Assembly (NCBI GenBank): GCA_903851465.1
Contig: CAINOI010000030.1
Coordinates: 22,795 to 86,794 of the forward strand
Length of the DNA stretch: 64,000 nt
From: an uncultured Bacteroidota bacterium
GTDB lineage: Bacteria > Bacteroidota > Bacteroidia > Chitinophagales > Chitinophagaceae
Direction: 5' to 3'
Numbering within the stretch: the first letter of the stretch is position 1; every line of letters starts with the position of its first letter. Both the position numbers and the translations under genes were made by a program. Below are positions 24,531 through 28,226 of the stretch, piece after piece. The notes under the pieces were generated by a model, which saw only the letters and a program-made list of their open reading frames with translations, did not search any database and was not told the origin of the DNA.

Positions 24531-25799
24531 ATGACTCAACCTAAAAAGTTTCAAGCTTTTCTATTGACTGTGTATATCGCAGCCATTTGCTTTTTAACTT
24601 ATGCCTGCGTCTATGCATTTAGAAAACCATTTACAATTGGCTTGTATTTAAATGAACCAAAAGTATTTGGAGTTGATTATAAAAATATACTTGTCATTGC
24701 ACAAGTGATTGGCTATACCATTAGTAAGTTCTGTGGAATTAAATATATTTCTGAACTAAAAAATATTGGAAGGGGTTGGGCCATTTTAATCTTATTACTT
24801 CTTTCTTGGATTCCTTTATTATTATTTCCACTCATTGATAGTCCTTGGAATGTCGCCATGCTCTTTTTAAATGGCTTGCCATTAGGCGTGTTATGGGGTT
24901 TAATCTTTTCATTTGTGGAAGGTCGAAAATCAACCGATTTTATTGGGGCTACAATGGCGGTGAGTTTCATTGTTTCTTCGGGCTTTGTTAAATCAGTAGG
25001 CAAGTGGTTACAAATACAATATTTGATTGCAGAAAATTGGATCCCATTTTATACTGGCGCTATCTTCATTATTCCTATTATTATTTTAGTGTATTTATTA
25101 GAAAAAATACCTAACCCAACTTATGAGGAAAGGGTTAATAAATCTATACGTGTTCCATTGAATAAACTTGACCGTAAGCGTTTTTTCACTCAATTTAGTT
25201 TTGGGCTCATTTCCTTTATACTTATATACATGCTGTTGTCTTTATTTAGAGATATAAGAGACAATTTTGCTGCCGAGCTTTGGAACGAATTAGGCTATGG
25301 AAATACTGCTTCTATTTTTACATCTACTGAAATTCCAATTGCAATTTGTGTATTGATCCTAATTGCAAGTATGATTTATATAAAAAATAATAAGTTGGCG
25401 TTTTTCTTAGCACAATCAATTATTTTATTTGGCTTTATTATCTGTGGACTAAGTACAATCTTATTCCTACAGCACTATATATCTGGCTATAGTTGGATTG
25501 TGCTTGTTGGCCTGGGCTTGTATATGGGTTATATACCATTCAATTCAATACTCTTTGATCGAATGATTGCTAGTTATAAATTAAAAGCAAATGTGGGCTA
25601 TTTCATGTATTTAGTGGATGCATTTGGCTATGTTGCTAGTGCGGGGGTGATTATACTTAAAGGGACCATGGATGTTAATTTGAGTTGGACAACATTTTTT
25701 AGCAATGGCTTAGTTGTTTTATCTTTAGTGGGTATCCTTTTTAGTATTTTAAATATGATTTATTTTTCAAAAAAATATAAAACAATACAATATGAATAA
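24531..25799 (+). CDS. DUF5690-like MFS-type membrane protein, candidate phosphonate transporter
   Basis: About 11-12 hydrophobic segments; YACVYAFRKPF, QVIGYTISKFCGIKYISE, LNGLPLGVLWG, EGRKSTD, RDIRDNF, YLVDAFGY recognised as DUF5690. Confidence 0.7.
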   Translation: MTQPKKFQAFLLTVYIAAICFLTYACVYAFRKPFTIGLYLNEPKVFGVDYKNILVIAQVIGYTISKFCGIKYISELKNIGRGWAILILLLLSWIPLLLFPLIDSPWNVAMLFLNGLPLGVLWGLIFSFVEGRKSTDFIGATMAVSFIVSSGFVKSVGKWLQIQYLIAENWIPFYTGAIFIIPIIILVYLLEKIPNPTYEERVNKSIRVPLNKLDRKRFFTQFSFGLISFILIYMLLSLFRDIRDNFAAELWNELGYGNTASIFTSTEIPIAICVLILIASMIYIKNNKLAFFLAQSIILFGFIICGLSTILFLQHYISGYSWIVLVGLGLYMGYIPFNSILFDRMIASYKLKANVGYFMYLVDAFGYVASAGVIILKGTMDVNLSWTTFFSNGLVVLSLVGILFSILNMIYFSKKYKTIQYE

Positions 25800-26916
25800 G
25801 TCGGCAATAGTTGTTGGAGCTGGAATAGTTGGCTTAGCAACTGCAAGAGCATTGGCGGAAAAAGGGTATTCGGTTAAAGTGATTGAGAAGTCTCAATTCG
25901 CATTGGGCGCTAGTGTGCGAAATTTTGGTATGCTTTGGCCAGTAGGTCAACCAGACGGCAATCTTTACAATCGATCAGTTCGAACAAAAGAAATTTGGGT
26001 TGAATATTTAGAGGCTGCTAATATACCATACAATGCCTGTGGTAGTTTACATTTGGCGTATTGTGCAGAGGAGATGAATGTTGTAGAAGATATTGCGCAG
26101 TTTTTTCAATCTAAAAATAGACCCGTTTCGGTGATTGATAAAGAAACTGTTTTATCCAATTACAATGGTATTAATGAAAATGGATTATTGGGTGCATTAA
26201 GAAGTGAAGATGAAATTATCATAGATCCAAGAGAAGGCATCAAGCATTTACCTGCTTATTTGACGCAAAAATATGGTGTTTCATTTATTTGGGGAACCGC
26301 CATCACCAGTGTGACAAGTCATGCTACTTTTGCAGGTAAAACCAAATTTGAAGCAGATTTAGTTTGTGTTTGTTCTGGACAAGATTTTGAAACCTTATAT
26401 CCAGATCAGTTTAAAGCACAACCAATCATAAAGACAAAACTACAAATGATGCGCTTTAAGCATCAAGATCCTGATTATAAAATTGGCGCATCAGTTTGCG
26501 GTGGTTTGTCTTTATTACATTATAAAAGTTTTCATGCATCATCTGCATTAACCAAATTAAGATTAAAGATAGAAGAAGAAATCCCTGAATATTTAAAATA
26601 TGGTATTCATGTAATGGTTTCTCAAAATAACAATGGCGAGTTAACCGTTGGTGACTCTCACGAATATGCTTTAGATTTTGAACCTTTCGATAAAACCGAA
26701 ATCAATGAAATGATTCTTGCCTATCTGAAAAAGTTCATGCATATAGACCAATGGAAAATGATCCAATCATGGAATGGTATTTATCCAATTATGACCAATG
26801 GGGCTGCAGAATTATTCTTAAATCCAGAACCAGGGGTCTATATTTTAAATGGCATAGGTGGACACGGTATGACGATGTCATTTGGCTTTGCCGAAGAAAT
26901 GATTGAAACAATTTAA
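25792..26916 (+). CDS. TIGR03364-like FAD-dependent oxidoreductase (phosphonate-associated, PbfC-like)
   Basis: Rossmann VVGAGIVGLA, GASVRNFG, TKLQMMR, GGLSLLHY, YGIHVM, VGDSHEY, GIGGHGMTMSFG. Confidence 0.8.
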   Translation: MNKSAIVVGAGIVGLATARALAEKGYSVKVIEKSQFALGASVRNFGMLWPVGQPDGNLYNRSVRTKEIWVEYLEAANIPYNACGSLHLAYCAEEMNVVEDIAQFFQSKNRPVSVIDKETVLSNYNGINENGLLGALRSEDEIIIDPREGIKHLPAYLTQKYGVSFIWGTAITSVTSHATFAGKTKFEADLVCVCSGQDFETLYPDQFKAQPIIKTKLQMMRFKHQDPDYKIGASVCGGLSLLHYKSFHASSALTKLRLKIEEEIPEYLKYGIHVMVSQNNNGELTVGDSHEYALDFEPFDKTEINEMILAYLKKFMHIDQWKMIQSWNGIYPIMTNGAAELFLNPEPGVYILNGIGGHGMTMSFGFAEEMIETI

Positions 26917-26994
26917 TACCAAGTATAATTTCATCTATATTTCAAATAATTAACTTTTAATAAAGCTATCTTTTACTTTTTAAATGCATCAACT

Positions 26995-27543
26995 ATGAAT
27001 CAACCTATAGTAACCGAAATTCTTACTTTATTTAATACCAATGGTGGTTCAATGTACGGCGGAGAGGCTGTAACGCAATTAGAGCATGCTTTACAAGCCG
27101 CTACATTAGCAAAAGAAAACAATGCTTCTGACGCTTTGGTAACAGCCGCATTATTACATGATATTGGACATCTTTTACATGATCTACCAGACGATGCGAG
27201 CGACAATGGGATAGATGATGTGCATGAAGCATTGGCTGCGAAGTATTTGGAAACCTATTTTGTTCCTGCAGTCGTAGAACCCGTTAAATTACATGTGGCT
27301 GCTAAAAGGTATTTATGTGCAGTGGATCAGCATTATTTCGACACATTATCTGCTCCATCAAAAACAAGTTTATCGTTTCAAGGTGGTGTGATGAACGAAA
27401 CTGAAGTGGCTGAATTCGAATTGAATCCTTTTTTTAAAGATGCTGTTACATTGAGAAAATGGGATGATATTGCAAAAGATCCGGAGATGAAAACAGAAGC
27501 AGTTGAATTTTTTGCTTCAATGATTCAAAATAGTTTAAAATAA
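26995..27543 (+). CDS. phnZ: PhnZ-like HD-domain diiron phosphonate dioxygenase
   Basis: YGGEAVTQLEHALQ, LLHDIGH, HEALAA, LHVAAKRYL, SLSFQGG, LRKWDDIAK. Confidence 0.85.
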   Translation: MNQPIVTEILTLFNTNGGSMYGGEAVTQLEHALQAATLAKENNASDALVTAALLHDIGHLLHDLPDDASDNGIDDVHEALAAKYLETYFVPAVVEPVKLHVAAKRYLCAVDQHYFDTLSAPSKTSLSFQGGVMNETEVAEFELNPFFKDAVTLRKWDDIAKDPEMKTEAVEFFASMIQNSLK

Positions 27544-27548
27544 ATTTT

Positions 27549-28226
27549 ATGCAAATTCAATGTGTCGTTTTTGACATGGCTGGTACCACTGTAAACGAAG
27601 ACAATCTTGTTTATAAAACTTTACAAGCTGCCATTAATCATTACAATGTTCCCGTAGATTTAGATCATGTATTATTACATGGTGCTGGGAAGGAAAAATT
27701 CCAAGCAATTAAAGACATCATTTCAAATAGTCCCTATACATTAGATGAAATGGTGCAATTAGAAGCGTTTAATTATTTTTTAGCACAATTAGACATTGCT
27801 TATAAAAACTTTAAGGTAACTCCAATGCCAGGTGCAGAACAGGTATTCATAGCATTAAAAGAAAAAGGGATAAAAGTAGTGTTAAATACTGGATACAACA
27901 GAGCAACAGCAGAAAGTTTATTAGGTCAATTAGGATGGTCTGAAGGAGCACAAATAGATCTTTTAGTGACTGCATCCGATGTATTGCATAATCGTCCTAT
28001 GCCTGATATGATCCTTTATGCAAAAAATAAATTGAATATAGCAGACACAAAGCAGATGGTTAAAATTGGTGATTCTTGTATTGATATTGAAGAAGGTAAA
28101 AATGCAGGCTGTTTGTTGAATATTGGTATTACAACAGGGGCGCAAACCGAAACACAATTATTACAAGCAAAGCCAGATTATATCGTTCATAGTTTAACAG
28201 AAATGTTAGAGATCCTTTCAAAGTAG
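27549..28226 (+). CDS. Phosphonatase-like HAD hydrolase (PhnX-like, TIGR03351-type)
   Basis: DMAGT in place of DxDxT, cap Lys in GAGKEK, Arg in NRPMPDMI, KIGDSCIDIEEGKNAG. Confidence 0.82.
   Translation: MQIQCVVFDMAGTTVNEDNLVYKTLQAAINHYNVPVDLDHVLLHGAGKEKFQAIKDIISNSPYTLDEMVQLEAFNYFLAQLDIAYKNFKVTPMPGAEQVFIALKEKGIKVVLNTGYNRATAESLLGQLGWSEGAQIDLLVTASDVLHNRPMPDMILYAKNKLNIADTKQMVKIGDSCIDIEEGKNAGCLLNIGITTGAQTETQLLQAKPDYIVHSLTEMLEILSK

Follow-up and report, generated by a model that had tools for sequence, protein, structure and literature searches.

How might a bacterium without the usual transaminase PhnW scavenge phosphate from 2-aminoethylphosphonate (AEP) and related compounds, and can a hydrolase missing one of the residues regarded as catalytic in the phosphonatase PhnX complete such a route? 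We address these questions for a gene cassette of an uncultured Bacteroidota bacterium (Chitinophagales; Chitinophagaceae; assembly GCA_903851465.1), located within positions 22,795–86,794 of the forward strand of contig CAINOI010000030.1. This stretch of 64,000 nt is called the window below, and coordinates are counted from its first letter. The host is a freshwater, small-genome Chitinophagia-type bacterium, the window has a G+C content of ~35%, and the genome assembly comprises 1.91 Mb. An earlier note on this DNA had described the interval 25792–28226 as a pair of genes, a FAD oxidase and a PhnX-like hydrolase of the HAD type. Both open reading frames (ORFs) are there and correspond to the models TIGR03364 and, narrowly below its cut-off, TIGR03351, respectively, but the interval holds three plus-strand genes rather than two, the middle one having gone unmentioned: a predicted PbfD-type FAD-dependent aminophosphonate oxidase (P0001, 374 aa; 25792..26916), a PhnZ-like HD-domain diiron oxygenase (P0002, 182 aa; 26995..27543), and a PhnX-like HAD hydrolase (P0003, 225 aa; 27549..28226), which starts 5 bases past the oxygenase gene. 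Each is present in a single copy in the genome.

We propose that the cassette would serve phosphate scavenging from AEP-type compounds without the usual transaminase. The substrate would enter through a SusCD-like outer-membrane pair and then a DUF5690 inner-membrane protein, both encoded directly upstream. As judged from other family members, the PbfD-type flavoenzyme would convert AEP and/or N-methyl-AEP to phosphonoacetaldehyde by oxidative deamination. The PhnX-like enzyme would bind the aldehyde as a Schiff base at Lys50, pass the phosphoryl group to Asp9 and release acetaldehyde and phosphate, as PhnX does, despite missing the equivalents of the helper residues His56, Met49, and Cys22. 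In parallel, the PhnZ-like oxygenase would split a 1-hydroxylated aminophosphonate, for example, (R)-1-hydroxy-AEP (HAEP) to glycine and phosphate. The pivotal step is the hydrolytic one. We consider it probable that P0003 is a phosphonoacetaldehyde hydrolase working without His56 and Met49, an activity that we infer from its gene partners. Three unrelated phosphonoacetaldehyde-making enzymes (PbfD, PbfG, and PhnW) are found beside its clade or fused to it, the catalytic Asp, Lys, and Arg and the Mg-binding residues are intact while the phosphatase acid/base Asp is replaced by Ala, and nothing else in the genome could consume the aldehyde.

The oxidase, the oxygenase, and the missing transaminase

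P0001 scores 391.8 bits against TIGR03364, 107 above the cut-off of 285.1, matches the Pfam family DAO (1.9e-42), and carries a GAGIVG dinucleotide-binding motif at its N terminus, as expected for an FAD-binding protein. The suggestion that it is an oxidase of the Pbf type thus held, and by family membership P0001 is a predicted AEP/N-methyl-AEP oxidase. Assayed PbfD members produce phosphonoacetaldehyde from N-methyl-AEP and AEP and can replace PhnW; the substrates named as oxidized are N-monomethyl-AEP (M1AEP), N-ethyl-AEP, AEP, and N-dimethyl-AEP (M2AEP) only (PMC10590968). P0001 is 45–64% identical to the syntenic PbfD proteins of its relatives and only 26–32% to the planctomycete-type PbfD genes found here, from which it differs as another PbfD subgroup. 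This distance, together with weak matches to ThiO, MnmC, and D-amino-acid dehydrogenase models, would fit a flavoenzyme whose substrates are D-amino acids, glycine, or sarcosine, so that AEP would not be the starting compound of the cassette. We regard this as very unlikely: the margin over the family cut-off is wide, the synteny with PhnX-like and PhnZ genes is conserved, and two assayed PbfD enzymes that are themselves only ~30% identical both accept M1AEP and AEP as substrates but not sarcosine, taurine, or beta-alanine (PMC10590968).

The absence of phnW, claimed earlier, is borne out by the window and extends to the whole genome, where the best match to TIGR02326 scores 36.7 bits against a cut-off of 400.8. 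A tblastn search with two bona fide PhnW sequences gave weak partial matches to other aminotransferase-like genes (26–29% identity over ~75–100 residues). Neither true PhnX nor PhnA nor PhnJ (C–P lyase) was found in the genome, and since PhnW is missing as well, P0003 is left as the sole candidate for consuming the aldehyde. PbfG was found neither in the window nor elsewhere in the genome. Near the locus, the sole aminotransferase-like gene is a class IV (PabC-like) one that adjoins a chorismate-binding (PabB-like) gene at 8311–9862; it is not PhnW.

P0002 reaches 223 bits against TIGR03276 (cut-off 214.6) and falls short of the cut-off of 300 with both the TmpB (188.5) and the PhnZ1 (183) models. 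Over its whole length it can be aligned with the structures of TmpB (6NPA; 2.9e-37) and PhnZ (4MLM; 3.2e-28), and it retains their His/Asp motifs for metal binding together with the substrate loop Y-x-G-E (Y21-G-G-E24), as expected for a PhnZ-type HD oxygenase. Neither the window nor any of the inspected related loci showed a hydroxylase-partner gene of the 2-oxoglutarate dioxygenase type. A TauD-family dioxygenase was not found in the genome by a search whose control worked, and a search with PhyH (PF05721) for PhnY* gave no match anywhere, controls included, and is thus uninformative. As there is no recognizable hydroxylase partner, the substrate of P0002 is most likely one that has been hydroxylated beforehand, for example, (R)-HAEP, for which Zangelmi et al. 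propose phnZ as the route in such clusters (PMC10590968). The earlier note suggested that the oxidase and hydrolase may act on N-alkylated or hydroxylated AEP analogues. The hydroxylated case is not supported: HAEP derivatives were synthesized as candidate substrates by Zangelmi et al. but are not named among the compounds oxidized by PbfD (PMC10590968), and a role on hydroxylated AEP belongs more plausibly to the intervening PhnZ-like gene.

The cap motif of the PhnX-like hydrolase

P0003 contains the motifs DMAGT (residues 9–13), HGAGKEKFQAI (44–54), and HNRP with Arg149. To place these, a profile of 70 family members was aligned to chain 2iof of Bacillus cereus PhnX, whose numbering is that of the literature; D12, G50, and K53 also appear in titles of Protein Data Bank (PDB) entries. 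Asp9, Asn19, Ala46, Gly47, Lys50, Ala53, Tyr116, and Arg149 of P0003 correspond to Asp12, Cys22, Met49, Gly50, Lys53, His56, Tyr128, and Arg160 of PhnX, respectively. The alignment agrees with what had been noticed from the letters alone, the DMAGT, the motif-III Arg, and the cap Lys being accompanied by an AGKEKFQAI stretch without the Met and His: the nucleophile and the Schiff-base Lys are kept, and the equivalents of the helpers His56, Met49, and Cys22 are truly absent. In all, Asp9, the DxAGT motif, Lys50, Tyr116, Arg149, Asp175, and Asp179 align to PhnX residues, and D9, G12, T13, G47, K50, and R149 are invariant among the 70 sequences.

P0003 and B. cereus PhnX (EC 3.11.1.1; TIGR01422; PDB 1FEZ, 1RQL, and 2IOF) thus share the fold, the Asp nucleophile in DxAGT, a cap Lys three residues past a conserved Gly, the Tyr128 and Arg160 equivalents, and Mg-binding Asp residues. 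They differ in length (225 vs. ~265 residues), are only ~22% identical, and P0003 has His56 and Met49 replaced by Ala, Cys22 replaced by Asn in a loop one residue shorter, and a conserved Lys48–Glu49 ahead of the catalytic Lys. We speculate that Lys48–Glu49 or Tyr116 takes over the helper role. Against the true PhnX model TIGR01422, P0003 scores only 101 bits (cut-off 220). Against TIGR03351, it scores 216.8 bits (E = 3.5e-64) with a cut-off of 218.9, covering positions 1–219 of 220, and syntenic relatives of the same clade score 227–254 bits. The motifs of the latter model are all in place: DxAGT instead of DxDx(T/V), Arg instead of the motif-III Lys, and the cap Lys.

The AlphaFold2 model of P0003 (pLDDT 96.4) has PhnX structures as its top Foldseek matches (1rql, 1swv, and 1fez; TM score 0.84–0.87). 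Generic HAD phosphatases follow close behind (0.78–0.85), and P0003 has weak matches to PpaX, phosphoglycolate phosphatase, and beta-phosphoglucomutase models. Such a protein could be an ordinary phosphomonoesterase of the phosphoglycolate or sugar-phosphate type, scavenging phosphate esters in a phosphate-starvation locus; the fact that 20 of 60 long loci of its clade have no recognized phosphonate partner within 8 kb would agree with this. The residues speak otherwise. In P0003, as in PhnX, the acid/base Asp that phosphatases have two residues after the nucleophile is replaced by Ala, a state shared by at least 90% of the family members. Arg takes the place of the motif-III Lys, and both traits are specific to PhnX; the cap Lys is nearly invariant. 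With the near-perfect co-occurrence with PbfD and the fusions to it described below, a phosphomonoesterase seems to us highly improbable.

The earlier note linked the altered cap to a possibly different substrate, a reading that comparison with the family does not support. We aligned 175 sequences, drawing representatives from 1.8 billion proteins at the 50% identity level and adding the host family's copies and, as an outgroup, one true PhnX. Lys50 is present in 168 of them. Position 53 is Ala in 143 sequences and Val in 17, and His is found solely in the true PhnX; the equivalent of His56 is thus absent in all 174 PhnX-like sequences. The altered cap motif is a trait of the family and not a peculiarity of P0003. 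Within the family, 47 sequences carry Ala46/Tyr116, usually with AGKEK (clade A), and 82 carry Met46/Phe116 (clade B). Crossed combinations are nearly absent, and the true PhnX itself has Met with Tyr. P0003 falls in a clade of 50 leaves (support 0.875) that contains 41 Ala46/Tyr116 sequences and none with Met46/Phe116, so that the replacement of Met by Ala marks the whole clade. Of the helper residues around the Schiff-base lysine of PhnX, each clade thus retains a different one. The idea that clades A and B have different partners, and hence different substrates, was rejected, as both occur with PbfD and PhnZ and with PbfG.

Gene partners of the PhnX-like family

We sampled 151 genomes of the host's family, one per genus, and fetched ~18 kb around each PhnX-like copy. 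PbfD is present in 41 of these genomes, PhnX-like in 39, and both in 38, such that the two occur together in 38 of the 42 genomes with either. True PhnX is found in a single genome, which has no PbfD. The common layout is SusC–SusD–(variable ORF)–PhnZ–PhnX-like(clade B)–DUF5690–PbfD, and a PhnZ-like gene is adjacent in 22 of 40 loci. The clade A copies of the family, which are 51–58% identical to P0003, instead adjoin TIGR03366 alcohol dehydrogenases (five loci). TIGR03366 is PbfG, a 2-hydroxyethylphosphonate dehydrogenase that makes phosphonoacetaldehyde (PMC13576164). A third partner is seen in locus L041, where a clade A copy directly follows a bona fide PhnW (TIGR02326, 475 bits), and PhnW also occurs in two other loci. 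In L041 (5601–8957), the PhnW–PhnX-like genes are immediately preceded by genes for an LpxH-like phosphoesterase and a glycosyltransferase of the MJ1255 family.

The clade A relatives beside PbfD, PbfG, or PhnW are 51–59% identical to P0003. Among the 60 long clade A loci, with partners counted within 8 kb, 17 have PbfG only, 9 PbfD only, 7 PbfD and PhnZ, and 5 all of PbfG, PbfD, and PhnZ; PhnW and PhnZ alone account for one locus each, and the remainder are those without a recognized partner. A scan of named genomes found a 93% identical copy of P0003 in a metagenome-assembled genome (MAG) labeled "Chitinophagia bacterium." The gene order of the window, DUF5690–PbfD–PhnZ–PhnX-like, recurs in two Daejeonella genomes, a Sphingobacterium MAG, a Sediminibacterium MAG, and three MAGs of uncultured Bacteroidota. 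In both Daejeonella genomes and the Sphingobacterium MAG, the arrangement is SusCD–PbfG–DUF5690–PbfD–PhnZ–PhnX-like, a single hydrolase standing behind both PbfG and PbfD. Full-length fusions of PbfD and PhnX-like were found in P0131 (621 aa), P0148 (644 aa), and a Pirellula MAG (L154:6804-8678; 624 aa). That the clade's partners PbfD, PbfG, and PhnW all make phosphonoacetaldehyde speaks against the different substrate that the altered cap had been taken to imply.

A different role for the hydrolase follows from an idea in the TIGRFAMs descriptions. PbfD would oxidize 1-hydroxy-AEP to 1-hydroxy-2-oxoethylphosphonate, and the PhnX-like enzyme would either convert this to glycolaldehyde and phosphate or pass it on to PhnZ; the family would then not be isofunctional with PhnX, its His-less cap cleaving another 2-oxoalkylphosphonate, such as 1-hydroxy-phosphonoacetaldehyde, in series with PhnZ. 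The description of TIGR03364, quoted in PMC10590968, proposes HAEP, and a cap without His56, Met49, and Cys22 would suit another substrate. The window, like the 22 family loci, has a neighboring PhnZ-like gene, of a type whose known relatives use 1-hydroxyphosphonates as substrates, and two proteins, P0132 (426 aa) and P0138 (419 aa), are fusions of PhnZ and PhnX-like, which action in series would explain. However, assayed PbfD enzymes give plain phosphonoacetaldehyde from AEP and M1AEP, HAEP derivatives not being named among their substrates, the same clade is also found with PhnW and PbfG, both of which yield phosphonoacetaldehyde without a hydroxyl group, and many PbfD–PhnX-like loci have no PhnZ. 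On balance, we find the hydroxylated-aldehyde route unlikely.

Several observations weigh against the assignment of P0003 as a phosphonoacetaldehyde hydrolase in an AEP pathway. The PhnZ–PhnX-like fusions are unexpected if the two enzymes merely work in parallel. His56, an Ala in P0003, is listed as having a direct part in PhnX catalysis (PMC11203657), and P0003 lies 2 bits below the cut-off of TIGR03351. Zangelmi et al. 2023, the paper on phosphonate catabolism that a full-text literature search returned, report no assay of a TIGR03351 protein, and the published PbfD assays were coupled with Vibrio PhnX (PMC10590968). The distance of P0001 from the planctomycete-type PbfD enzymes limits any prediction of its preference among AEP and mono- and dimethyl-AEP, and as the genome is 91.5% complete, the absences from it are not proof.

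The uptake genes and related systems

Upstream of the cassette on the plus strand lie genes for a SusC-like TonB-dependent transporter (19554–22871; TIGR04056, 395 bits) and a SusD-like lipoprotein (22892–24451; SusD-like_2, 1.7e-63), a putative outer-membrane uptake arm. A terminator-like hairpin (24487..24513, plus strand; a 12-pair stem followed by a T tract) separates susD from the gene for the DUF5690 membrane protein (24531..25799, plus strand; PF18943, 2.2e-147; weak MFS_1 match), whose stop overlaps the start of P0001 by 8 bases. In most related loci, a SusC/SusD pair is upstream of the catabolic genes, and in nearly all, a DUF5690 gene adjoins PbfD/PhnX-like. The DUF5690 protein is likely the inner-membrane importer of the cassette, a putative role. 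A second paralogue in the genome, 45% identical (G000:C32:25582-26844; L080:9583-10845), is transcribed divergently from genes for a glycosyltransferase of the MJ1255 family and an acyltransferase and also has housekeeping genes around it; as it has no phosphonate genes nearby, DUF5690 may not be phosphonate-specific.

Divergent from susC, the minus strand (12108..19447) encodes two proteins combining a beta-propeller with a phosphoesterase of the phospholipase C (PLC)/acid-phosphatase family (16733–19447 and 14283–16688; both with PF04185 and beta-propeller matches) and a TonB-dependent receptor (12108–14240). The phosphoesterases may release phosphonate head groups, and homologues of this arm (58–69% identity) stand beside the cassette in eight related loci. 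One of these, L050 (G130:C2:93333-111998), is listed under the same genus as the host, yet its genome is 4.3 Mb against 1.9 Mb here, its layout is PhnZ–PhnX-like(clade B)–DUF5690–PbfD, and its gene-for-gene identity to window positions 16733–28226 is only 32–63%. This points to replacement of the cassette in one of the two lineages or else to a genus of great breadth. The variable ORF of the common family layout is a ~360-aa protein of the alkaline-phosphatase superfamily, sometimes replaced by a metallo-beta-lactamase, a PLC-like enzyme, or a TonB receptor. In most clade B cassettes, this conserved ~360-aa ORF is directly upstream of phnZ (L055:7278-8369, L050:10264-11337, and L058:7327-8406). 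It has only weak Pfam matches (Phosphodiest, Metalloenzyme, and Sulfatase) and no NCBIfam model, was not found in the window or the rest of the genome, and may encode an enzyme releasing the phosphonate head group from a conjugate.

On the 3' side, the cassette is followed by a gene for a beta-lactamase-family serine hydrolase (28241–29500; PF00144; the best NCBIfam match, methyl acetate hydrolase, is far under its cut-off) and then nadC, nadA, and nadB. The hydrolase gene starts 14 bases past the PhnX-like gene, and its stop overlaps the start of nadC. No homologue of it occurs near the cassette in 39 family loci, and it is thus probably a mere neighbor. A scan for sigma-70 promoters gave 39 sites vs. 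45.6 in shuffles, with a model ill-suited to Bacteroidota promoters.

The gene combination itself was published in 2023, and the locus is an ordinary new example of it. Zangelmi et al. (2023, iScience) described the PbfD2–PhnX pathway that replaces PhnW, and Table S1 of that paper contains numerous pbfD clusters assigned to the type "phnX" that include phnZ but no phnW, in Mariniblastus fucicola, Sphingopyxis fribergensis, Caulobacter segnis, and others (PMC10590968). Our locus resembles these in its TIGR03364 oxidase, phosphonatase-type hydrolase, phnZ homologue, and lack of a transaminase, and the logic matches, with an oxidase yielding phosphonoacetaldehyde, a hydrolase cleaving it, and PhnZ as an alternative for (R)-HAEP. 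It differs in its Chitinophagia-type host and in the linked SusCD, DUF5690, and PLC-like phosphoesterase genes. Three planctomycete MAGs have the PhnX-like type only, and the family of the Pirellula MAG has both TIGR01422 and TIGR03351 types; we dropped a typing of the M. fucicola "phnX" as PhnX-like, true PhnX being found in 35 of 81 genomes of that family.

P0003 resembles the NCBIfam family TIGR03351 ("phosphonatase-like hydrolase," a hypothetical equivalog) in motifs, tree position, and synteny with TIGR03364 and TIGR03276, although the activity of that family is a proposal. Both the synteny and the differences in the motifs are already noted in the descriptions of TIGR03351 and TIGR03364. 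A second likeness is to the PbfG–PhnX clusters for 2-hydroxyethylphosphonate (Piazza et al. 2026, Protein Sci, PMC13576164), where the closest family relatives of P0003 sit; some loci join PbfG to the window's gene run, unlike the genome studied here. The SusCD-like pair joined to phosphorus-scavenging enzymes recalls the Pus (phosphate utilization system) loci of Flavobacterium johnsoniae and other Bacteroidota; PusCD-like pairs are stated to colocalize often with aminophosphonate genes (2026 preprint, bioRxiv 10.64898/2026.09.03.749221). The ligand and role of the pair in the window are putative. Our tests extend this picture by triangulating from three partner enzymes, by the fusion proteins, by counts of co-occurrence, and by the covariation of Met/Phe vs. 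Ala/Tyr.

With this locus, a small-genome freshwater Chitinophagia lineage would join the aminophosphonate users of the published oxidase route, which here appears to be wired to a SusCD uptake system. In the host's family, PbfD is usually partnered by PhnX-like rather than by PhnX (39 vs. 1 of 151 genomes). The PhnX-like enzyme, in which a residue regarded as catalytic in PhnX is missing, would represent either a rewired phosphonatase or an enzyme with a new substrate.

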